DNA of 13,131 bases from Candidatus Hodarchaeota archaeon (lineage in GTDB: Archaea; Asgardarchaeota; Heimdallarchaeia; Hodarchaeales; Hodarchaeaceae): the NCBI GenBank assembly GCA_016840035.1, contig JAEOTC010000269.1, positions 1 through 13,131 on the forward strand, written 5' to 3'. The stretch's first letter is position 1, and every line of letters starts with the position of its first letter. The translations under genes were made by a program, and so were the position numbers. Of the stretch, positions 199-13,131 are shown piece after piece. Below the pieces are notes generated by a model. The model saw only the letters and a program-made list of their open reading frames with translations. It did not search any database and was not told the DNA's origin.

Positions 199-205
199 TT
201 TTTTT
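199..205 (+). terminator. oligo-T archaeal-type terminator candidate
   Basis: T-run directly after the TAG at 196-198. Confidence 0.5.
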
Positions 206-243
206 AACCGAAATTCTTAGATCTTTTCTTACATGTAATTATG

Positions 244-251
244 TTTATATA
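244..251 (+). promoter_or_regulatory. TATA-box candidate (TTTATATA) for the leader/rio1 transcript
   Basis: Matches the archaeal TTTAWATA consensus and would place a start site near 270-280, just before the uORF SD at 296-302. The BRE is weak and the region is AT-rich. Confidence 0.4.
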
Positions 252-311
252 TGGAAAGACAAGAATTTCGTCATTTTCATGATAACCAAAGACCCGAGGT
301 GAATTTGTGCA

Positions 312-389
312 ATGTTAAGTAACACAATGTTAATGAAAATCCATTTGGCTCATTCTACTTGCACAAAAATCGCGGGTAATTTGAGATAG
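312..389 (+). CDS. putative 25-aa leader peptide/uORF (MLSNTMLMKIHLAHSTCTKIAGNLR)
   Basis: GAGGTGA SD at 296-302, ATG at 312-314, TAG at 387-389. No recognisable homology. Confidence 0.35.
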   Translation: MLSNTMLMKIHLAHSTCTKIAGNLR

Positions 390-795
390 GGACACTGTCT
401 ATCGATTCTCATTTTTCTTTTGCTTATTTTGCAAGTAGGGCTTAGAGATACAAATCCAGATGGATTTTTTTAAAAAAATACCCTTGAAACATACGTTCAA
501 TCCATTAGCTTGGATTGAATTTCATAATCTTTGATTTTAAGTGATCAAGATGCGAAAATTCAGAAGTTCCGTAGTCATATCTCCTTTCATCAGTGGATAC
601 TCCGTATTTCAGTCATAGAAAGCGTTTAAGCAAAATGTTTTTATAGTGAAGTTATAAAAACTGATTGTACTGTTGATAGACAGTCTTTAGTGGTGAAAAA
701 CAATATTGAAGGAAAATTTACCTTTAAAAGTAACTTTCAGAATAATAAGCGGTATATGTAGAAGAAATACTGATTATTCGTTCACCAGGAGGTGT
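335..795 (+). ncRNA. putative structured RNA / cis-regulatory 5' leader of rio1 (no known family recognised)
   Basis: Hand-paired stems: 335-348/456-469 (14 bp), 353-363/430-440 (11 bp), 385-390/398-403, 495-504/511-520 (10 bp), 527-536/543-551, 637-646/652-661 (10 bp), 669-674/679-684, 691-697/781-787, 706-712/721-727, 740-746/773-779, 750-755/767-772, 577-585/787-795. The non-Watson-Crick pairs within these stems are G-U on the + strand. Confidence 0.6.
788..794 (+). promoter_or_regulatory. Shine-Dalgarno GGAGGTG of rio1
   Basis: Strong archaeal SD consensus 6 nt upstream of ATG at 801. Confidence 0.75.
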
Positions 796-800
796 TTAAA

Positions 801-1760
801 ATGAGTTCAGATCACAATCAGAGAATCGGATTTGAAAGATATGGGAAAATCGCTCCTGGACGGGAAGAGTATCGAATTTCCCGGGAGAGTAAAGTCCAGC
901 CAAAAGAGGTTCGGATCACAGATGCGATAACTCAACTTCTTGAAACTCGGAAAGTAAGACAGGTGTATTCTGTTATCGGAGGGGGAAAAGAAGCTACTGT
1001 TTTATTAGGTGAGGATCCAGAAGGAAAGCTTGTTTGTGCTAAAGTATTTCGTTTCTATACAAGTACAAACAGAAAACGTCTCAAGGGAACTAAACATCTC
1101 TTGCATAGTGATATGGCAATGATCGCTGCAAGACAGGAATATTGGAACCTCCATGCAATGGTCAAACAAACTTCTGTACCAAAACCTATTGCTCTCCTCG
1201 AGAATATTGTCTTAATGGAATTCATTTCGGAAAATCCATCCAATCCTATGATTCCAGCACCTTTAATCAGGGATGTTGATCTCACATCTTTCAATCCAGA
1301 AGAAATCCTCTATTCAGCAATTGATATATTGGCTCAAGTATTTCTCAAATCTCAGATGATCCATGGAGACTTTTCTGAACACAATCTTATGATCCAAACA
1401 CATTCTGGAAAGCTTTTTACAATGGATGTTTCTCAGTCTGTAGAATATAATAGTAAGACATTCGTCAATACCCCTGTACGCATTCGTATTGACAGAGCTG
1501 TTAAAATGCTCGAAATTGATATTAAAAATATTAACCAGTTCTTTAGAAGGATCTATAGGATAAGCATTGATCCTGAGGAAGTGAAGGAAGAAATCATTTC
1601 TGAACTACCTCAACATCTGAAAGATTTTCTCGCTGAAAAAACTATGAATGTTTATCCAGGTGAGTTAGTAGCGCATGAGTCTTTCTTGGGGAAAGGGCAA
1701 CATAGAAATGATCTCGTGGTGAAAAGAAGGCGTAGAGTTCGTCAAGCTCCGAAACGATAA
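801..1760 (+). CDS. rio1: RIO1-family atypical Ser/Thr kinase/ATPase (small ribosomal subunit maturation)
   Basis: P-loop IGGGKEATV, beta3 AKVFR, helix-C QEYWNL, catalytic loop HGDFSEHN, metal-binding DVSQSVE, DIKNINQFF. No N-terminal wHTH of Rio2 is apparent. Start moved from GTG 792 (inside the SD) to ATG 801. Confidence 0.92.
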   Translation: MSSDHNQRIGFERYGKIAPGREEYRISRESKVQPKEVRITDAITQLLETRKVRQVYSVIGGGKEATVLLGEDPEGKLVCAKVFRFYTSTNRKRLKGTKHLLHSDMAMIAARQEYWNLHAMVKQTSVPKPIALLENIVLMEFISENPSNPMIPAPLIRDVDLTSFNPEEILYSAIDILAQVFLKSQMIHGDFSEHNLMIQTHSGKLFTMDVSQSVEYNSKTFVNTPVRIRIDRAVKMLEIDIKNINQFFRRIYRISIDPEEVKEEIISELPQHLKDFLAEKTMNVYPGELVAHESFLGKGQHRNDLVVKRRRRVRQAPKR

Positions 1761-2369: not shown

Positions 2370-5300
2370 TTGAAATCAACAACTTATCAATATACATATT
2401 TCATTGCAAGATTGATTTTAGTACTCTTACTTTTATTCCCAAGTCCATTATTTATATTAAGTGGTCAGTTAGGGAGTAAATCATTAAATAATGCGATTTC
2501 AAGTCAAAAGAGTAACGAAGAATCTACCCTTCATCTCTTCACGTATAAGCACGAAGAAATGGAGGAGATAATGAACTATTTTGTCCAAAATTTCAACAAA
2601 GTACCAAAATTTTTCCAGAATGTGCAGATAGGTATGGTATCTATTACAGAGGAGGAATATACCGACGTTCGTAGTACTTTTGGCTTGTTTTCTTCCCGTA
2701 TGCAAACTTCTAGCGTAATAAATGTCCTCCCTTCGATTGAGGAGTTAAATATCCAAAGGATCCGAGCATCTAGCCAGGGTCTTCAACTTCCCAGTAGTAT
2801 TGTTAACGCTTCAGTACAAATAGGAAAGGGATATGATGGTTCGGGTATTAAGATAGCTATCTTAGATTCAGGAATAGATACCACTCATCCTGATATAGAT
2901 AATGTTGGGTATCAAGAGTCCTTCATTTTACCTGAATATGGATTTTCTTCCGAAGAGGGGACTTCTGATTTACATGGTCATGGCACGCATGTTACTGGAA
3001 TTGCAGCAGCGAGTGGTTCATATCCAGGAATTGCTCCTGGATCAGAAATCGTTAATTTAAAAGTAGCAGATATGTTTGGTGGTGCTTCCAGTGCAGCAGT
3101 AATTGCCGCTTTGGATAAAGCTATCGAGCTAAATGTTGATGTAGTCTCAATTTCACTCGGATTCGGTCTTACGGATCCTTGGGGCTCAGAAAATGTTTTA
3201 GATCTTGCGGTAAATTCTGCTGTTGAACATGGAATAATCGTTGTCGTTTCTGCCGGTAATGAAGCTGATAGTTCTACTCCTTTCATGACAATAAATACTC
3301 CTGCTTCCGCACAAAAAGCAATTACAGTTGGAGCTACAAACGGGAGTGAGAATGTCGTACGATTTTCAAGTCAAGGGCCTACGTTTGATTTTCGTCCAGA
3401 CCCTGATCTCGTAGCTCCAGGATATCAAATAATTGGGCCTCTTGCTTCAGGAGGTGTGATTGATTTAGCCTATAATGCTTTAGTTGATGTATCTATTGTG
3501 GATTATGTGATATTGTCAGGTACCTCAATGGCAGCTCCTGTTGTGAGTGGAGCAGTAGCTTTACTTTTAGATCAATTTCCTAATGCTTCTCCGTATGCTA
3601 TACGAGCTGCACTCCAAGAATCTGCAACTGATCTAGGTGAAAGTGAAACTATCTATACTCAAGGAGCTGGATTGATTAACGTTGGTTTAGCTGCAGAGGA
3701 GTTAGAGAGGACTCAAATTAGCTCTGGTTTTGAAATTATTTCAACAAATCCTAGAGCAAATGATAGAGCTATAGAATTTTTTCATCCAGCAAGATTTCCA
3801 GGAGATCAGGCAGAATTCACACTACCCTTTGTTACTGGATCAGCTGGAACCATCACATGGGAAATCAGTGGTGAAATTAGTTCATTTATTGAATTTGACA
3901 CTACACCTACAGTTATTCCCTCTGCTAAATATTTTGAGAAATTAATTACAATCGATATTCCCTTGAATGTTCCTTCAGGGCTTTATCAGGGAGATATTGG
4001 ATTCTCTTTTGGTACAAAGGATTATGAACTTCCAATTTCGATTGAAGTACTCCTACCGAAGGATAAACTTTATTGGGATACATATCACACTGGGGTCGAT
4101 GATTCATATTTCCTTAATTATAGATCCTTTAATCAGTATATCCAAGGACCAAACCATCGTTATGATATAGATGACTATACTTCTCCCATTGTTAACGCGA
4201 ATCTAACACAGAGTGGTATATTAGTTTTAACGGATCTTGAAAATCCCTTAACTTCTCGCGAAATTAAGGAAATTAAGAACTTTCACAATAATAACGGATC
4301 TATTCTTATGATGACTTCATTCCTACCATATTTCAACCTTGATCCCTATGAAAAGATCGTAAAAGCATTAAATTTACCAATTAACCTTTCTGATAACAGA
4401 GAATTTGTTAATTATGTTGATAATGGACGTGAAAGATATCCAGTCCCTTGGACCCTATCTTTAGAGAGTTTAGAAATAAGTTTAGGCAACCCATTCCTTA
4501 AAGATGTTGAAGAACTTCCAAAATTAGGAGAAAATGCATTCTACGGTAATATGACAGACGAGTCTTTAACTCACTATGCTCAGATTGATGATCATCTGCT
4601 TTTAGCAAGTATAGAGAAATCCAATAAAGGAAAAGTTTTGATACTGGGAACAGAAAATTGGTTGGCACCATCTTATCTTCAAAGTACTTCTGGTGAAATA
4701 TTTACGACAAATATTCTTAAATGGTTGTCTCCTGACCAACCCGCATTTAATGTGCGGTTTGATCCACTGAGTAATGATATAGAGATTGCAGTCTATCCAG
4801 AATCAGCTCAAAATTTTTCCCTTTCAATTGAATTAGCAAATGGTACAAAGATTTCTAATATAGCAGTTTTTTATGATCAATACCTCAACTTTTCCTATAG
4901 GCAGTATAAGCTAAATAGCGTTGAGGGGGTTGAAATTAAGGCAAACATTTTTGGAGATCATCCAGAAAAATTTAATGTGACTTTTAACATATTTCTGTCT
5001 TCAAGTAACCTTCCTCTTGTTGAAGAAATATTAGTAGGTTCGATCGATGAAGCGGGTGTCCAAAAACCGTCATGGTGGGAAGAATCAGAAACACTCGTTG
5101 ACACTGGATTAATATTATCAGTGAATCATTCAACATCCGCAAGAATTTCAGCAACTGCTTTAATATTCAGTCAATATCAGAAATCGCTTGATGTAATCCT
5201 TCCTCCTCTAACGTCCCCATTTTTTGAGGTTAGTTACGTAGACGAAATAAACTTTACTAATGAATCGTTGGAATTAAAATCAGCGCTTTGGGATAAACCA

Positions 5301-6092
5301 GACGGTTTACTAACTGGCTACTATAGTTATGAAGTTCAAGTATGGTGGAAAAATGAATTTAATCAAATTGTTTTGCTAGAATCTATTCGAGAAACCTTTT
5401 TCGTTCCAGATACTGAACCTGAAATACACATTGATCAGAGTTACGTTGGAGATTTAACCATAAATGACCATCGGAATATACTTACTTTCGAAGATCTTCC
5501 AAAATGGAAACCAGGAGAACAGATTGATATTTACTTACAGCTTCTGGATGTCGAATCAAGTCATTTTGAGGTATATTATCAGCTTCTTCATTATTATCTC
5601 TTCGCTGCAGATAGAATCGTATTAAATACCCATATTCTGTATCCTACTTCTTCAGATAGTAGTATTCATTCAGGGATATTTTCTGTACCCGATCTTCCAA
5701 TTCCATTACCAGATGAGGAGGGATTTGAAGTGGAATTAGTTGGTGAATATTTTGTCCTCCTATTCTTTATACGAGATGCCCAAGGAAATTCAATTATTGA
5801 ACCAATCTTTTTTCAAATCTCATCTGCGGGAGCAATGGATATGACACTTGTTATTGTTGTTGTATTATTTGCGCTCGTAGCAACTGGAGTGATAGTATTT
5901 CTCCTTCAACGAAACCAACGAAGAATGTATGATCCTTACTCCTATCATCAAACCCGAACCCAAGAAGTTAGTACAAAACCTAAATCTTCTTTACATAAGT
6001 ATTGTATTAACTGTGGACAACGATTAGCCTTTCAAGCTCAGTACTGCCCATATTGTGGTAAAATCCTAAATTTTGATTATGAAAATCAGTAA
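2370..6092 (+). CDS. membrane-anchored S8 subtilisin-like serine protease, site-1-protease (MBTPS1)-like architecture, with C-terminal TM helix and zinc ribbon
   Basis: N-terminal hydrophobic signal/anchor; putative prodomain; triad ILD166SG, HGH204GTH, GTS386MAAP; oxyanion SAGNE; WDTYH...GILVLTDLE...EI GATase/GIFT-like domain; TM MTLVIVVVLFALVATGVIVFLL; CINCG...CPYCG. The TTG start is uncertain. Confidence 0.93.
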   Translation: MKSTTYQYTYFIARLILVLLLLFPSPLFILSGQLGSKSLNNAISSQKSNEESTLHLFTYKHEEMEEIMNYFVQNFNKVPKFFQNVQIGMVSITEEEYTDVRSTFGLFSSRMQTSSVINVLPSIEELNIQRIRASSQGLQLPSSIVNASVQIGKGYDGSGIKIAILDSGIDTTHPDIDNVGYQESFILPEYGFSSEEGTSDLHGHGTHVTGIAAASGSYPGIAPGSEIVNLKVADMFGGASSAAVIAALDKAIELNVDVVSISLGFGLTDPWGSENVLDLAVNSAVEHGIIVVVSAGNEADSSTPFMTINTPASAQKAITVGATNGSENVVRFSSQGPTFDFRPDPDLVAPGYQIIGPLASGGVIDLAYNALVDVSIVDYVILSGTSMAAPVVSGAVALLLDQFPNASPYAIRAALQESATDLGESETIYTQGAGLINVGLAAEELERTQISSGFEIISTNPRANDRAIEFFHPARFPGDQAEFTLPFVTGSAGTITWEISGEISSFIEFDTTPTVIPSAKYFEKLITIDIPLNVPSGLYQGDIGFSFGTKDYELPISIEVLLPKDKLYWDTYHTGVDDSYFLNYRSFNQYIQGPNHRYDIDDYTSPIVNANLTQSGILVLTDLENPLTSREIKEIKNFHNNNGSILMMTSFLPYFNLDPYEKIVKALNLPINLSDNREFVNYVDNGRERYPVPWTLSLESLEISLGNPFLKDVEELPKLGENAFYGNMTDESLTHYAQIDDHLLLASIEKSNKGKVLILGTENWLAPSYLQSTSGEIFTTNILKWLSPDQPAFNVRFDPLSNDIEIAVYPESAQNFSLSIELANGTKISNIAVFYDQYLNFSYRQYKLNSVEGVEIKANIFGDHPEKFNVTFNIFLSSSNLPLVEEILVGSIDEAGVQKPSWWEESETLVDTGLILSVNHSTSARISATALIFSQYQKSLDVILPPLTSPFFEVSYVDEINFTNESLELKSALWDKPDGLLTGYYSYEVQVWWKNEFNQIVLLESIRETFFVPDTEPEIHIDQSYVGDLTINDHRNILTFEDLPKWKPGEQIDIYLQLLDVESSHFEVYYQLLHYYLFAADRIVLNTHILYPTSSDSSIHSGIFSVPDLPIPLPDEEGFEVELVGEYFVLLFFIRDAQGNSIIEPIFFQISSAGAMDMTLVIVVVLFALVATGVIVFLLQRNQRRMYDPYSYHQTRTQEVSTKPKSSLHKYCINCGQRLAFQAQYCPYCGKILNFDYENQ

Positions 6093-7251: not shown

Positions 7252-9516
7252 TCAATTTCTGGATAGGAGTTTTAGTTGATTTATGATTTCAAAAGCTACA
7301 CTTTTACTCAATGGAGAGTTATCATTTCCACATTTGGGTGATTGAACGCACGATGGACAACCATCACTACAAAAACATTCGAGGATTAATTGTTGGACAT
7401 TAGATAATAATAAACTCCAATTTTCATAGAGTTTTTCAGCAATACCAATCCCTCCTGGAAATCCATCGTAAATAAATATTTTAGATGTCCCATCAGCCGG
7501 GAAATTCGGATATGAAGTTCCTCCAATATCCCAACGATCACAAAGTGCAAATAAGGGAGATAGAGCAATAGTAGCATGCTCTAATGCATGGATCCCTCCT
7601 GGAAAGTCTTTTTTTTCTGTTTTTAGTTTCTCCACGATAGATGAGGGAATTTCTATCCAAACAGATTTTGTTTCAAACTCCAACGGCGGGAGATCGAGAG
7701 GATTAATTTCGAGAAGTTCATCGTAGGTCTTTTTTCGATAAGCAAAGTAATATTCAGTTACCTTGACATTTCCAAATGTAATAGTATAACCATTATCTTT
7801 TTCTTGAATCTTTGAAAGAACTTCGACATCACTTGTTGAAATTGCTTCAGTATAATAATCAACATCATGACGGGATGCGATGGCTTTCCTGTTCTTCCAA
7901 TCAATCGTTTCAAGTAAATATTTCTCGCCTTGATGAATTAATATTGCTCCTTCGTGTGCTTCACGATATGCTTGCGATGTGGTCATCGTTTCTAACAATT
8001 TATTATTAACAACTATCTCTATAGTTTCAGTAAATGCTGAATTCAAACTTACCTGTGCTGAGGGGTGTTTGATTGATTTAAGAACGATACCTGCAGGAAG
8101 AATTTTGATAATATCATTTTTCAATAATTCTTTAACTAATTTGAGACCAGTCTTTCCCCAAATTTTACTAATTTCAGATTTTTTTATGGGTAGTTCTGCT
8201 GCAGCACATAAGATGTGCCCTTTCAGAATGTATTTATTTGATAAATCAATAATAGCATTTTCTGGAGATTTATCAAGGAAATACTCCGGATGTCGACCTA
8301 AAAATTGTTGATATGCATCCTCAAATAAAACTAAGGTTGCAAGGGAAGGACGGGTAGTTCTACCTACGCGTCCTATTTGTTGCCATGTTGAGATTATCGT
8401 ACCTGGGAATCCACTTAGTATTACAGCATCGAGGTTTCCAATGTCTATACCTACCTCAAGTGCATTTGTACTGACAACTGCAGTTAGTTCCCGATTTCTT
8501 AACTGAGCTTCAATTTTTCTTCTTTCGTGAGGACGATAACCAGCGCGATATGCCATTATTTGGTTTGGATCATCCCCCGTCTGTTCTAGGTCTTGTCTGG
8601 CCCAAACAGTTAGTATTTCAGACATTTTTCTTGACAGTGTGAAACATAATGTTTGATAATGCTCTTTTAAATGAGTAAATAACAGGTTTCGAGTTTCTTG
8701 ATGAGGTGATCGTCGTTCTAGTTCAAATTGGTCTATATAAGGGGGATTCCAAATCACTAATTCTTTTGACCCTTGTTGAGAACCATCATTCGTGACAACA
8801 TGAACAGGTTTACCGATTAATTTTTCAGTAAAATCCTTGGGATTATTTATTGTTGCAGAAGAAAGAATGAATTGTGGTTGAGTACGATAAAACTCACAAA
8901 TTCTATGCAATCTCCGAATAAGTTGAGCAACATTTGACCCGAAAACTCCTCGATATGTATGAGCTTCATCTATGACAATATAGCGTAAATTCCGAAAAAA
9001 CCGTTCCCATTTCGAATGCCAGTCTAAATACCGGTGAAAGGCGTACGGATTTGAAATAATCACTTTAGCGGTGTTTCGAATTGCTGGTCGTCTTTCAGAT
9101 GGAGTATCACCATCATATATGAACGGACGTAGTCTTCCATCTAGTACAGCGTTTAATTCTTCCATTTTGGAAAGCTGATCATTAGCTAGTGCTTTCATGG
9201 GGTATAAAAACAATGCTGTGGAGTTTCTTTTTTGAGTAATGGCTTGAGCGACTGCTAAGGAAAAAATTAACGTCTTTCCTGAGGCAGTCGAGGTAGTAAC
9301 AACAATATCCTTCCCTTCATTTATTTTATTGAGTGCCTCGGCCTGATGAGAATATAGTTTCCATTCGTTATTTTGTAACCAATGTTCGAGTTCTGGTGCA
9401 ATTTGAAAATTCAGTGTACCAAATTGGGGTTTCTTTGCAGGAATAGATTTATGAAATATGATCTGGTTTTTATAAGATTTATTAGATTTTATTTGGTTAA
9501 TGAACTCAGAAATCAC
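7252..9516 (-). CDS. SF2 DEAH-box helicase with C-terminal DUF1998 Zn-binding domain (Hrq1/MrfA/SftH/RecQ4-like)
   Basis: LYSHQAEA, motif I TSTASGKT, Ia YPMKALANDQ, YDGDT, II DEAH, III SAT, YRAGY, V TNALEVGIDIG, VI QQIGRVGR, HALEHA, YDGFPGGIG, CFCSDGCPSCVQSPKC. GTG start overlaps the upstream TGA. Confidence 0.95.
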   Translation of the reverse strand: MISEFINQIKSNKSYKNQIIFHKSIPAKKPQFGTLNFQIAPELEHWLQNNEWKLYSHQAEALNKINEGKDIVVTTSTASGKTLIFSLAVAQAITQKRNSTALFLYPMKALANDQLSKMEELNAVLDGRLRPFIYDGDTPSERRPAIRNTAKVIISNPYAFHRYLDWHSKWERFFRNLRYIVIDEAHTYRGVFGSNVAQLIRRLHRICEFYRTQPQFILSSATINNPKDFTEKLIGKPVHVVTNDGSQQGSKELVIWNPPYIDQFELERRSPHQETRNLLFTHLKEHYQTLCFTLSRKMSEILTVWARQDLEQTGDDPNQIMAYRAGYRPHERRKIEAQLRNRELTAVVSTNALEVGIDIGNLDAVILSGFPGTIISTWQQIGRVGRTTRPSLATLVLFEDAYQQFLGRHPEYFLDKSPENAIIDLSNKYILKGHILCAAAELPIKKSEISKIWGKTGLKLVKELLKNDIIKILPAGIVLKSIKHPSAQVSLNSAFTETIEIVVNNKLLETMTTSQAYREAHEGAILIHQGEKYLLETIDWKNRKAIASRHDVDYYTEAISTSDVEVLSKIQEKDNGYTITFGNVKVTEYYFAYRKKTYDELLEINPLDLPPLEFETKSVWIEIPSSIVEKLKTEKKDFPGGIHALEHATIALSPLFALCDRWDIGGTSYPNFPADGTSKIFIYDGFPGGIGIAEKLYENWSLLLSNVQQLILECFCSDGCPSCVQSPKCGNDNSPLSKSVAFEIINQLKLLSRN

Positions 9517-11891
9517 AGAATATCACTCGCAGTACTCTTCATGGATCTTCCTGAACTATCACGGGTAATTTGGATTGAATGGGGAAATTGGTTTGCAATT
9601 TCTGTGATGTGGGTGATCAATATGATCTTAAATCTACCACTTAATTCAAACAGCTTCTTCACAAACGCTTGTTGAGCTTCAGTAGTATCAAGAGATCCCA
9701 AATCACCTTCATCAATAAATAGTGTTTTCTTAGATGGAGAATCACGTGTACTTGTTCCCCCAAATGACGAGAGTTCTTCACTAATTGCTAATCGAAGTGC
9801 AGCGTTAATCTGCGTTCTTTCACCTCCAGAAAAAGTAGAAATGTCTCTTGCTCCTTGAGAGGTGTGGATATTTATCTTAAAACCAAGTCCTTGCTTTCCT
9901 TTTTCAGTACGTTCTAATTGAACACTTGTGAGTCTTTGATTGGTCAAATCTGAAAGAATTAGAGAAGCTCTTCTTCCTAAATATGGGAGAATCTTGTTAA
10001 TGGCATAGAAAGGAGCTCCTTTTGTATGAAAAATCTCGTTCTTTAGTTTATTTAGAATATTTTCTTCTTGAACGAATTCGTTATATTTTTTCTCAAGATT
10101 TTTGATCTCAGGTTCTAATTTCAATATTTCTTGTACATTAGACTTAAGATTTTTTATATCTTGATCTATTCGAACACATTGTATCTGGATCTTCTCAGCT
10201 TGTTCGGTTTTTTCCTTAAAATCGGCCTTTACTTCGTCAAATTTTAGCTGAAATTGTTTGAAACTTGTAAGTTCTTTTTTGTAACCTGTTTGTTCTTCTT
10301 TTATTGATTCTATTTGTGCTTCCAACGTCTTGATTTTGCTGGTTGGATCAATTTTTGTTTCAAGCTTTTGTTTGGCTTTCCTATAATCAGTTCTAATCTT
10401 TTCATTCGATTTCTGAGATTTCTTCAATGTATCAAGATGTTTTTGAATTTCTGGAGTGAATTTTAACTGTTTAAGTCTAGATTTTTCTTCTTCAAGGTCC
10501 TTAGTTGAAGATTCTTTGAGTTCCTTTTTTCTCTGATTCAGAGTATCAAGTTCTGTTGTGAGTTGCTTTCCCAAATCCTGAATTTCAGAAAGTGTAAATG
10601 AATCAATATTGATCTTCTCTTTTTCGTGTACCAATTCTTTGAGATCTGCTCTGGCTGTCAATTGTTCATGATTTAGGTCCTTAATCAGGTTATCTGGTAA
10701 TTTCCATGACTTTTCAAGAGAAATTCTTTGAACTCTTTCCCCTAATCGGCCTTCTTGTTGCAAGATTTTGAAGGCTTTGTGATGGTCAATATCGGTTGAA
10801 AGGTTGGAAATTCGATCTGCAGTTTCTCTCTTTCGTTCAGTTTTTTGTTTGATCTCTTTAGTAATGCGCGATTCCTCTGCAATAAACCGTTTTTGATGTT
10901 TTTCAAGATTTGTATGAATTAGTGTATATTCCCGTTTTTTACTTTCTAGATTTCTTATCTCTTCATCGTGATCGGCAGCAACTTCAGTTTGTTTTTCTAA
11001 CTCTTTAACTCTTTCCTTCAGCTTTTTGAATTCCTTTAATTCCCCTTCTGTAGCATTTTTACTATAAATAGACTTTTCGAGCTGTTTTTCAGCATTTTTT
11101 TGTTTCTCCAGGATAATTTGATATTTTTCATGTTGAATTTGAAGTTTAGAATTCTCTTTCTCTTTTTCTGAGAGCTGAGAAAGAATCTTCTTCTCCTTGT
11201 CTTTTAGAGAATTGAGTTCTTTGGTTAATTTCTTTACTTTTCTTTCTAGATCCTCTTTTGAAGCAAAATTTCTCTTTTTCTCTCGCAATTCACCCTCTAC
11301 GTTATTTTTTAGGCCATTAATGGTGTTAAACTGAGCTTGTGCGTCCTGTATAGCTTTTTTGAAAATATCTAATCGAAAAAGATTTTGTAATGCTTCTAAA
11401 CGTTTTGTTGACGATTTAGATCCGAGTGATTTCATTTCATCTTGACGAATTATTGTGGAGTTGATAAAAGCAGCATAATTCATTCCCAATATTGTTGAGC
11501 GTATTTTTTCATTTAGCTCTGGAATCTTCCCATTTATTGGTTTACTGTTAATGAATAATTCAAGAAAGGTCTTGCCCTTAGTATCACGTCCTCGAATAAC
11601 TCTGTACGAGTTTTTACCGACGTTAAAGCGGCAGGTGACTCTCCCATTTTTACCACAAACATCCTCTGTTTTAACTACCGGTAGATCTAATCGTGAACTT
11701 CTACCAAAAAGGGAAAATGTCAATGCATCCAAAATGGTGGTTTTTCCTGAACCTGTGGGCCCTGAAATGACAATATTTGGAGCTTTGAAGGAAAATTTTG
11801 TAGGATTACTTCGATAATTCATAAAGCGGTAGACTTCTATGCTGGTTAAGTCAAAACCACCACCAATGAAGCTATTTTCTGTGCTACTCAC
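9513..11891 (-). CDS. sbcC: SbcC/Rad50-family SMC-like ATPase lacking the CxxC zinc hook
   Basis: Walker A GPTGSGKTT, Q-loop IRQDEM, long coiled coil, signature FSGGER, Walker B/D-loop LFIDEGDLGSLD, H-loop LITH; directly downstream of an SbcD/Mre11 gene. Confidence 0.92.
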   Translation of the reverse strand: MSSTENSFIGGGFDLTSIEVYRFMNYRSNPTKFSFKAPNIVISGPTGSGKTTILDALTFSLFGRSSRLDLPVVKTEDVCGKNGRVTCRFNVGKNSYRVIRGRDTKGKTFLELFINSKPINGKIPELNEKIRSTILGMNYAAFINSTIIRQDEMKSLGSKSSTKRLEALQNLFRLDIFKKAIQDAQAQFNTINGLKNNVEGELREKKRNFASKEDLERKVKKLTKELNSLKDKEKKILSQLSEKEKENSKLQIQHEKYQIILEKQKNAEKQLEKSIYSKNATEGELKEFKKLKERVKELEKQTEVAADHDEEIRNLESKKREYTLIHTNLEKHQKRFIAEESRITKEIKQKTERKRETADRISNLSTDIDHHKAFKILQQEGRLGERVQRISLEKSWKLPDNLIKDLNHEQLTARADLKELVHEKEKINIDSFTLSEIQDLGKQLTTELDTLNQRKKELKESSTKDLEEEKSRLKQLKFTPEIQKHLDTLKKSQKSNEKIRTDYRKAKQKLETKIDPTSKIKTLEAQIESIKEEQTGYKKELTSFKQFQLKFDEVKADFKEKTEQAEKIQIQCVRIDQDIKNLKSNVQEILKLEPEIKNLEKKYNEFVQEENILNKLKNEIFHTKGAPFYAINKILPYLGRRASLILSDLTNQRLTSVQLERTEKGKQGLGFKINIHTSQGARDISTFSGGERTQINAALRLAISEELSSFGGTSTRDSPSKKTLFIDEGDLGSLDTTEAQQAFVKKLFELSGRFKIILITHITEIANQFPHSIQITRDSSGRSMKSTASDIL

Positions 11892-13111
11892 AGCTTTTCT
11901 TCCACCTGAGCAAGCGCGTTGTCAAGAATTTCGAGACCTTTCTTCCGTAATTGCTCCAAATTAGGATCTTGATGGAAGGATTTTGTTATAAAGTCATTGA
12001 ATAGAACTAAAGGATCTAAAACAAAATCTTTAAGAACTACTTCTCGTTTTTTAGTGGAAGTATCCCAAAATAACTCGAAATAAAAGGATGCTTTCAGCGC
12101 CTGATGAATACGTAGTAATCTCACCTTATTCTTTAAATCGGTAGAGATTCTAATAATAATTCGAACTACCGCTCCTTCTATGTCTTTTGGTAGTTTTTGT
12201 AAGATATAATCAGTAGGATCCTCAACCATCGGAACTTCTATTGCTTTTTTAACGTATGAACGTGGATTATTAGAGATAAACTCTAATTTTCCTGTCTTAG
12301 TTTCGAATACATAGAATCCCTTGTCTTCAACCATTTCCCCAAAATCTACTCGTTCTAATGATCCTGGGATGAGGACTTTTTCGTTATGTAGTGTTTGTGT
12401 GGTATGGACATGACCAAAGATTGCAAGATCAATTGAATCGAAGGGTATCATATCTTTCTTAATTTGGAATTCGTGAGGAAGAAGGTTAGGGTAAGGAATA
12501 ATATTAATTTTTGAGTCCTCATAGAAATAATGTCCAACAATAATTTTTACTTTCGTTTTTAATTTAGCCAGCTCACGTCCAATAAAGTATTTGATGTATT
12601 CTTGACTTGCAACCATTCGTCGGTCTTTTTCAATCGTTTTCCCAAGCCTCTTATCAGCAAATTGTGCAATTTGCGATGCTGTAAGATAGGGAAGGAGGAT
12701 AAACCCCATGTCTTCTTCTGTATTCGCCGCTCGAACAGTAATTGCTTTGGGGGTTCTAGCAACGATACTTTTTGGGATTAATGAAATTTCTCCTAATGGT
12801 GAACCTTTTTCTAAGATCTGTGGAGAGTCATGGTTACCTCCAATACACACAATTGGTATCTTAGATTCGATAAGAGGCTTCCAAACCTTGTCCCTGACAT
12901 ATCGGAGAAGTGTAGGGCCAACAGTTACACGATCAAATAAATCTCCTGCAATGACAACTACATCTGCTTTGTTATCGATCGCATATGAAACAACTCTTGA
13001 TAAGGCATTAACGAAATCTAATGTTCGGTCACTCATTCCAGTCTTCAAATCTACACGGTAGGTATAGCGTTTTCCAAGATGAACATCGCTTACAATAATG
13101 AGCTTTGCCAT
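11888..13111 (-). CDS. sbcD: SbcD/Mre11-family metallophosphoesterase DNA repair nuclease
   Basis: Phosphoesterase motifs SDVHLG, AGDLFD, GNHD, GH, FGHVH, then PGSLERVDFGE..EDKG and a C-terminal helical region that plausibly binds Rad50. ATG at 13111 is preferred; TTG at 13120 is an alternative. Confidence 0.93.
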   Translation of the reverse strand: MAKLIIVSDVHLGKRYTYRVDLKTGMSDRTLDFVNALSRVVSYAIDNKADVVVIAGDLFDRVTVGPTLLRYVRDKVWKPLIESKIPIVCIGGNHDSPQILEKGSPLGEISLIPKSIVARTPKAITVRAANTEEDMGFILLPYLTASQIAQFADKRLGKTIEKDRRMVASQEYIKYFIGRELAKLKTKVKIIVGHYFYEDSKINIIPYPNLLPHEFQIKKDMIPFDSIDLAIFGHVHTTQTLHNEKVLIPGSLERVDFGEMVEDKGFYVFETKTGKLEFISNNPRSYVKKAIEVPMVEDPTDYILQKLPKDIEGAVVRIIIRISTDLKNKVRLLRIHQALKASFYFELFWDTSTKKREVVLKDFVLDPLVLFNDFITKSFHQDPNLEQLRKKGLEILDNALAQVEEKL

Positions 13112-13131
13112 TCTGATCAATTCACATATGA

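Follow-up and report, generated by a model that had tools for sequence, protein, structure and literature searches.

A self-masked upstream open reading frame as a candidate translation-gated leader of a divergent RIO-kinase gene in an Asgard archaeon

What occupies the 602 nt that separate a RIO-domain kinase gene from the preceding open reading frame (ORF) in a Hodarchaeales genome? The window analysed here, the whole 13,131-nt stretch of contig JAEOTC010000269.1 of a Candidatus Hodarchaeota archaeon, belongs to a 4.3-Mb metagenome-assembled genome of about 35% G+C, and the gap (199-800) runs from the ORF stop at 198 to the kinase ATG at 801. No ORF of more than 33 codons was found within it. 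The initial annotation had described the gap as an RNA leader of about 500 nt, filled with a dozen stems, controlling a Rio1 ribosome-maturation kinase. The gap itself is borne out by comparison, since the orthologous loci from 14 genomes of the genus and 12 metagenome contigs each have 400-750 nt upstream without a long ORF. The impression that no known riboswitch or non-coding RNA family is present also agrees with an Rfam 15 scan of positions 1-2500, in which no family reached its gathering score; the top matches, SpF36 (27.5 bits, gathering score 48) and the Na+ riboswitch (18.5 bits, gathering score 40.5), had E values of 0.37-0.94 and both sit on the AT-rich stretch 446-502. No tRNA gene was found by ARAGORN. 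A repeat or mobile-element origin of the gap was rejected, as both its DNA and the element model R1 are single-copy in the genome. We read the 5' third of the gap (about 244-475) as a translation-gated leader belonging to the kinase gene, and give this reading a probability of about 0.55.

The gene that such a leader would serve needs to be defined before the leader itself:

801-1760, + strand: divergent third RIO-domain kinase paralogue of 319 aa (PF01163, E 2e-26)

The initial annotation had called this gene Rio1. Its product matches the solved Rio1 structures with an E value of 4e-12 and scores 58.9 bits against the NCBIfam Rio1 model, for which the cut-off is 480. The canonical Rio1 is a separate gene on contig C71 (E 1e-47 to solved Rio1), and the canonical Rio2 lies on contig C184 (E 3e-53). 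Judged by its sequence, the gene in the window is an extra, lineage-specific RIO paralogue and not Rio1, so that the name "Rio1 ribosome-maturation kinase" over-states what is known of it. Across 14 orthologues of this paralogue there is no variation in the motifs GGGKEAT, HGD..SEHN and MDVSQS, which we take to be the RIO P-loop, catalytic loop and metal-binding motif. Orthologues were found in 14 other genomes of the genus (55-78% identity) and on 12 metagenome contigs, as well as in other families of the class at 27-36% identity.

We compared about 35 loci, drawn from five or more families of the class. When the five closest relatives were aligned, the gap resolved into conserved blocks separated by freely diverging sequence, one of which holds the uORF and its SD. 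The 5' part of the gap has the following features:

244-251, + strand: TATA-like box TTTATATA, read from the sequence as the promoter of the leader
296-301, + strand: Shine-Dalgarno (SD) sequence GAGGTG, 16 nt from its first base to the AUG
312-389, + strand: upstream ORF (uORF) of 25 codons, with the stop codon TAG at 387-389

In each of the five close relatives, GAGGTG leads an ORF whose length is exactly 25 codons. The layout holds over a wider range. In every orthologue examined, whether among the 24 distinct elements from the genus and from metagenomes or in the more distant families (27-36% kinase identity), an SD is followed after 9-13 nt by an AUG that opens a frame of 21-28 codons, and a cis anti-SD comes 60-75 nt downstream of the SD; the AGGT core of the SD is invariant in the 24 aligned elements. 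Nearly all lineages have an AT-rich, TATA-like box 38-52 nt 5' of the SD, and its conservation is strong in the sister clade and in other families. From the position of this box, transcription of the leader is predicted to start near 273-280, about 15-25 nt ahead of the SD. The TATA-like box, the SD, the 25-codon uORF and a U7 tract had all been pointed out by the initial annotation, and each lies where it was described.

Initiation led by an SD is plausible in this organism, given that SD-like motifs at -15 to -10 precede 18% of the long ORFs of the genome against a background of 4.8%. A search of four genomes with the archaeal 16S model gave no match and no 16S 3'-end motif was found in this assembly; as no 16S rRNA gene was found in the genome, the anti-SD of the organism is assumed here and not read. 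The genome-wide profile of TATA positions was too flat for promoter placement, and a genome-wide descriptor scan for an SD, a mini-ORF and an anti-SD returned 19 matches compared with 14 in the reversed-sequence control, which is no enrichment.

The relation between the SD and the cis anti-SD is the core of the evidence. In the window, the two arms that would mask the ribosome-binding site (RBS) of the uORF are:

292-312, + strand: 5' arm of the RBS-masking helix (P1, 292-296 and 298-300; P2, 307-312)
359-377, + strand: 3' arm of the RBS-masking helix, inside uORF codons 16-22

Pairing joins 292-296 to 373-377, 298-300 to 369-371 and 307-312 to 359-364, P2 including the A of the AUG, and the SD is masked in the minimum free energy (MFE) fold of 24 out of 24 elements. 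SDs of ordinary genes often find distant partners as well (mean long-range pairing probability 0.41 in 41 genes vs 0.74 for the elements), so that the fold of a single sequence is unremarkable, and for this reason co-evolution was tested directly. Between clades, the cis anti-SD and the flank of the SD change together, as in GGTGTC/GACACC, GGTGTTT/AAACACC, GGTGTAA/TTACACC, TGAGGT/ACCTCA and CAGGAG/CTCCTG. When arms were swapped among 14 clade representatives, cognate pairs had a mean energy of -17.9 kcal/mol and non-cognate pairs -11.8 kcal/mol; with the invariant SD core masked, the values were -8.2 and -5.4 kcal/mol, and in both cases no derangement was as good as the cognate set. The arm-swap test was also run in a version with 20 sequences.

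RNAalifold found no consensus fold on MAFFT alignments of all elements because the register of the helix slides between clades, and this approach was replaced by the arm-swap test and by alignment to a covariance model. The model was built on 15 elements and recovers the non-seed elements at the expected sites. In the covariance-model alignment, 77.4% of the cells are paired, compared with 61.6% in shuffles and 37-50% with slid partners; both partners have changed in 11 of the 12 pairs, and covariation scores 0.414 vs 0.184 in shuffles and at most 0.122 in slides, values that lean towards structure since the alignment was fitted to the model. The initial annotation had proposed that upstream regions of relatives be collected and examined for covariation, and doing so revealed a conserved, co-evolving element. 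Taken as an RNA element formed by the SD, the uORF and the anti-SD, dependent on translation and tied to the RIO paralogue, it is very probably real. The annotation had also placed an anti-SD over the RBS of the kinase itself, a CTCCT near 580, which is present in two of the five close relatives and was rejected as a conserved anti-SD; the one that is selected and co-evolving is the cis anti-SD inside the uORF.

Two further structures follow or overlap the uORF, each with a run of T residues behind it:

384-400, + strand: small hairpin with the uORF stop in its 5' arm; T5 (412-416) and T4 runs come after it
336-471, + strand: alternative rod formed by 336-348 and 456-468, ending in U7 (465-471)

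The small hairpin appears in the local MFE fold and in the RNAalifold fold of the five close relatives. A hairpin at or over the stop codon is predicted in many lineages, made of different sequences in the sister clade, and its mean z-score is -0.9, so that we regard the support for this candidate hairpin as moderate. An obvious U-run follows it in several families, and T-runs of at least 5 are found after the uORF in about 16 of 26 lineages. The rod is a 13-nt inverted repeat (92% complementary) which uses the 3' two-thirds of the uORF, leaves the RBS open and excludes the RBS-masking helix. The five close relatives retain it, two of its pairs having changed in both partners, and a T-run is present in four of the five. 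The RBS-open fold of 284-484 lies only 4.2 kcal/mol above the RBS-masked MFE fold.

The rest of the gap holds a few conserved blocks of another kind:

496-519, + strand: 9-bp hairpin
591-603, + strand: motif CAGTGGATACTCC, within a 22-codon ORF at 553-621
706-730, + strand: 7-bp hairpin (706-712 with 721-727) and TATA-like TTTAAAAG at 723-730
782-794, + strand: TCACC and then the kinase SD AGGAGGTG, invariant in the five close relatives

A hairpin of 5-9 bp with differing arms was seen by eye at the aligned position of 496-519 in all five close relatives, and it was not recovered by RNAalifold. The ORF at 553-621 is open in close relatives only and was rejected as a second mini-ORF encoding a conserved 22-aa peptide, as its core recurs in a different frame in the sister clade. 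There the motif CAGTGGATACTCC is found in two to three tandem copies about 29 nt apart, and it is also present in lineage L048; its occurrence in another frame indicates that it is conserved as nucleotides and not as peptide, and it may be a protein-binding or promoter-proximal site. The pairs of 706-727 are invariant in the five close relatives, and so structure is neither supported nor refuted at this position, which is possibly the kinase gene's own promoter (706-730). RNAalifold pairs the region 782-797 over a long range with the uORF RBS (292-302), with no covariation. As a whole, the conserved blocks of 480-800 could be either DNA sites, of promoter or operator type, or pieces of a long 5' untranslated region.

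If the element serves the kinase, it should be found with it, and this is what the searches indicated. Model R1 matches only the window in its own genome (E 2e-30; the next best match has an E value of 0.43). The broader model R2, applied to 41 related genomes, gave at most one match in each and 12 in all. Eleven of these lie directly before the kinase paralogue; one of the genomes has a contig that breaks off 33 nt past the element. One extra match to the element lies upstream of a gene encoding a GNAT-domain protein. The genes upstream of the element vary between clades, and the adjacency and orientation of uORF and kinase persist. From the uORF stop, the spacer to the kinase ATG is 411 nt in this genus, and to the kinase start 70-165 nt in other families. 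No match to the covariance model was found near canonical Rio1, near Rio2 or at loci from other classes, nor was an element found with this query at the best RIO matches in other classes of the phylum, which are probably canonical Rio1. Two other leaders were considered and rejected: the lone candidate mini-ORF before canonical Rio1 sits within an ORF of 207 aa, and those before Rio2 pair weakly with their SD and are unmatched by R2.

A similar architecture precedes the GNAT-domain gene in two sister families. GNAT homologues of a sister family have the SD, the cis anti-SD and a uORF, here of 26-30 codons, 106-130 nt before the gene; these leaders encode unrelated peptides, and the SD of the main gene lies within a small local hairpin whose arms differ between lineages. 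The same architecture before another gene argues for a cis-acting device rather than for a kinase-specific partner, and the self-masked uORF would then be a reusable design and not peculiar to the kinase. In the window, action in cis on the kinase is more likely than not.

The explanation that best survives besides a leader of the kinase is a small stand-alone transcription unit, consisting of promoter, SD, mini-ORF and an oligo-U terminator at about 412-471, whose RNA or whose translation would act in trans or have nothing to do with the kinase. Adjacency would then be only genetic linkage, and the kinase would be transcribed from its own promoter near 723-730. The unit does have its own conserved TATA-like box, T5 and T7 runs follow the stop in the window, as a hairpin and U-run do in several families, and the 411-nt spacer of the genus contains conserved blocks and TATA-like strings near the kinase. 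Oligo-T runs such as T5 and T7 act as archaeal termination signals; together with the conserved blocks and the TATA-like box at 723-730, they mean that the uORF unit could end before the kinase and that the kinase could have a promoter of its own. However, adjacency and orientation are kept across families despite the differing upstream neighbours, the spacer is as short as 70-130 nt in other families and ahead of the GNAT gene, and a cis leader would predict a single design shared by two unrelated genes. Moreover, a micro-protein acting in trans is unlikely for a peptide that evolves neutrally. We thus consider a stand-alone unit possible and yet unlikely.

The evolution of the peptide bears also on a second alternative, in which a functional micro-protein is made from the mini-ORF, for instance to act on the RIO paralogue as its partner or regulator, and the helix only tunes its amount. 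Many lineages do share a loose pattern (a basic residue, a hydrophobic run, E/Q-T-P/S and hydrophobic residues), and in the metagenome lineages L053 and L054 the E-Q-T motif is written with different nucleotides. On the other hand, between related pairs the uORF substitutions are distributed over the codon positions as 85:95:100, with no third-position excess, and 170 codon changes are non-synonymous against 28 synonymous. It is the structurally constrained anti-SD nucleotides that encode the recurring residues E/Q-T-P/S, and L044, L048 and L017 have a shifted frame relative to the anti-SD. The unrelated peptides of the GNAT leaders point in the same direction, and a functional micro-protein is in our view improbable. 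Across lineages, the leader peptides are mostly hydrophilic or mixed and no enriched or conserved amino acid or regulatory codon run was found in them. The frame itself is kept open, as 23 lineages have no in-frame stop over the span of the uORF and 72 and 50 stops in the other two frames. A frame maintained open at about 24 codons while its peptide is unconserved is the signature of a regulatory leader ORF: by this pattern of substitutions, the peptide evolves neutrally and selection would be on the translatability of the frame.

How much of the gap is structured RNA was a central point of the initial annotation, which saw it filled almost continuously with stems whose wobble pairs favoured the + strand. 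The whole gap has an MFE of -138.9 kcal/mol with a z-score of -3.45 on the + strand, which would agree with stems beyond chance, but its reverse complement has a z-score of -3.86 (20 shuffles each). Windows of 150 nt across the gap have z-scores of -0.8 to -2.8 on both strands, a range which windows in the kinase coding region also reach (down to -2.4). As the reverse strand scores as well and local z-scores are ordinary, thermodynamics alone backs neither a structured RNA of 500 nt nor a particular strand. The preference for the + strand holds for the uORF element only, where this strand is more stable in 20 of 24 lineages (mean -21.5 vs -16.9 kcal/mol) and where the SD helix relies in several lineages on G-U pairs, which are A-C mismatches on the opposite strand. 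Likewise, a continuous structure of about 500 nt shrinks to strong comparative support for about 244-475, with a few conserved blocks in the remainder. The stems with comparative support are the RBS-masking helix, the 384-400 hairpin, the 336-348/456-468 pairing and the 496-519 hairpin; most of the other stems of the 600-base gap are without support.

These results also bear on the weakest of the alternatives, that the element is a non-coding structured RNA or a protein-binding site with an incidental ORF and that the stems of 480-800 arose by chance in an AT-rich spacer: it agrees with the equal folding of both strands and the ordinary local z-scores of 480-800, with the blocks 591-603 and 706-730 being invariant or frame-changing as DNA sites would be, and with the lack of an Rfam match, but within 284-400 the frame-specific absence of stops and a conserved, correctly spaced SD would not be expected from it, and we hold it to be very improbable.

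According to the translation-gated reading of 244-475, the leader could work as follows. The promoter at 244-251 would start an RNA about 20 nt before a strong SD, which would drive translation of the 25-codon uORF. The whole RBS of the uORF, from SD to AUG, would be base-paired with codons 16-22 of the same uORF, and a small ribosomal subunit would be able to load only before the 3' arm is transcribed or when the helix breathes. Once translation is under way, a ribosome reading through the cis anti-SD would keep the RBS open. A translating or terminating ribosome would also cover the stop-codon hairpin and the 5' arm of the 336-471 rod, both of which lie before U-tracts, and in this way the translation state of the uORF would decide whether transcription, translation or both proceed into the kinase gene. 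From the arrangement of these features we infer where transcription starts, that the kinase shares the transcript, and how control would be exerted, in its direction and its level, transcriptional or translational. The option of a translation-sensing leader, raised by the initial annotation among others, is thus consistent with the selected element formed by SD, uORF and anti-SD, with strong support confined to about 244-475.

The arrangement can be compared with several known systems. In the ermCL-ermC, cat86 and cmlA attenuators, as here, there is a short leader ORF with its own SD. Mutually exclusive helices of the erm and cat attenuators likewise involve the leader coding region, and the position of the leader ribosome decides the fate of the downstream gene, as is proposed here; the leaders of cat and cmlA also encode a short peptide. 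However, their usual layout differs from that found in the window, where the helix would mask the leader's own RBS and no inducer or stalling motif is known. Since 70-550 nt separate the uORF from the main gene, direct unmasking of the main-gene RBS is shown at most weakly. The trpL, hisL and pyrBI leaders have in common with the element a promoter, an SD-led mini-ORF, alternative helices overlapping the ORF, and a hairpin and U-tract after the stop. Unlike trpL and hisL, which have a run of regulatory codons, the element has none and shows no conserved amino-acid bias. Archaeal termination also differs from that of trpL and hisL in that it depends mainly on oligo-U and not on a hairpin. As both predicted folds place a helix before U7, a terminator/antiterminator logic is not evident.

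Type I toxin mRNAs such as hok, aapA1 and tisB are similar in having a small ORF whose SD is occluded by a cis anti-SD and which is translated only in a kinetic or processing window, as would be the case here. Their products, however, are hydrophobic membrane peptides, whereas the leader peptides described here are not hydrophobic toxins and evolve neutrally, and the element, in contrast to those mRNAs, is linked to a downstream gene in the same orientation. Type I toxin-antitoxin systems also use an antisense RNA, whereas the - strand of the element folds less well than the + strand. In eukaryotes, the uORFs of GCN4 and ATF4 resemble the element in that it is the act of translating a short ORF, and not the product, that sets how much of the main ORF is expressed and signals the condition of the translation apparatus. 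They depend on scanning and re-initiation, while initiation at the element would be SD-dependent with an RNA helix as the gate, and no evidence was found for homology to uORFs of the GCN4/ATF4 type.

The features by which a leader peptide is recognised are present at this locus: an open, conserved short ORF with an RBS, located upstream on the same strand, and overlapping helices supported by covariation. Regulation by leader peptides is textbook knowledge in bacteria, and in eukaryotes uORFs have a central part in the control of translation. To our knowledge, no leader-peptide translational attenuator is known from Asgard archaea, and our literature search found none described in this group. 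The element is probably an undescribed archaeal switch that reads translation.

A more specific and doubtful proposal is that self-masked uORF leaders of Heimdallarchaeia sense initiation-competent small subunits and feed back on the synthesis of the RIO-type kinase and the GNAT protein. During a short co-transcriptional window, the leader SD would be contested by the cis anti-SD and the free 3' tail of mature 16S rRNA; in some lineages the cis anti-SD is the ACCUCC string which, we presume, stands at the 16S 3' end. If true, there would be a feedback loop between the supply of ribosomes and factors that act on the ribosome.

With the annotation corrected, the gene considered to be regulated is an extra RIO paralogue and not Rio1. 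What precedes it is a compact, single-copy element with compensatory changes, linked to a member of a kinase family of small-subunit maturation, and these properties make it a directly testable case of translation-coupled control in this lineage. The presence of the same design before a second gene suggests a small regulon, which can be mapped by computation.

Three RIO-domain kinases are encoded in the genome from which the window derives (G000): a canonical Rio1, a canonical Rio2 and the divergent paralogue of the window, which carries a basic C-terminal tail and is present across several families of the class.

RIO-domain kinase genes of G000
Window 801-1760, + strand: divergent paralogue
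G000:C71:23080-23973: canonical Rio1
G000:C184:134845-135741: canonical Rio2

A search of four whole genomes of the genus (G000, G010, G014 and G016), two of them single-contig, with an archaeal SSU rRNA model matched 0/4, and the same model matched all 14 of the 14 control genomes. The rRNA genes of these four genomes may be unassembled or interrupted.

Leaders of the RIO-paralogue type also precede, by 106-130 nt, GNAT-domain genes of two sister families (L079, L082-L086); they consist of a TATA-like box, an SD, a uORF of 22-30 codons and a cis anti-SD.

GNAT leader with the same architecture
L079:1009-1101, - strand

The protein encoded behind these leaders has about 300 aa, with the GNAT acetyltransferase domain at its C-terminus. 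No leader of this type was seen among the GNAT homologues examined in the window's genus. In G012, a genome of that genus, the RIO paralogue is followed after ~1.2 kb by the GNAT homologue.

The remaining genes of the window include a subtilase and, on the opposite strand, an overlapping group whose metallophosphatase is Mre11/SbcD-like and whose ATPase is Rad50/SbcC-like.

Other genes of the window
2370-6092: S8 subtilase of 1240 aa carrying a zinc ribbon at its C-terminus
7252-13129, strand opposite to the subtilase: overlapping genes for a metallophosphatase, an AAA_23/SMC_N ATPase and a DEAD/MZB/HRQ1-WHD helicase

At the upstream edge of the gap (window 199-241), relatives carry GACTTTATAAC immediately past the stop codon of the upstream gene, followed ~25 nt later by a conserved GCATG; this stretch may represent either a second promoter, lying farther upstream, or that gene's terminator region. 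At one distant orthologue locus, L025, a tRNA-like sequence lies just 5' of the leader promoter, ~330-400 nt ahead of the kinase start, showing once more that the upstream neighbour is variable.

Different clades have in common the motif AGTGGAYACTC before the kinase start.

AGTGGAYACTC
Window 591-603
L015, L016, L018, L023 and L045 (compared loci): ~70-130 nt 5' of the kinase start

In the sister clade it occurs in 2-3 tandem copies spaced by ~29 nt, and in L048, a metagenome lineage, a TATA-like box comes immediately after it. AGTGGAYACTC is a possible transcription-factor site.
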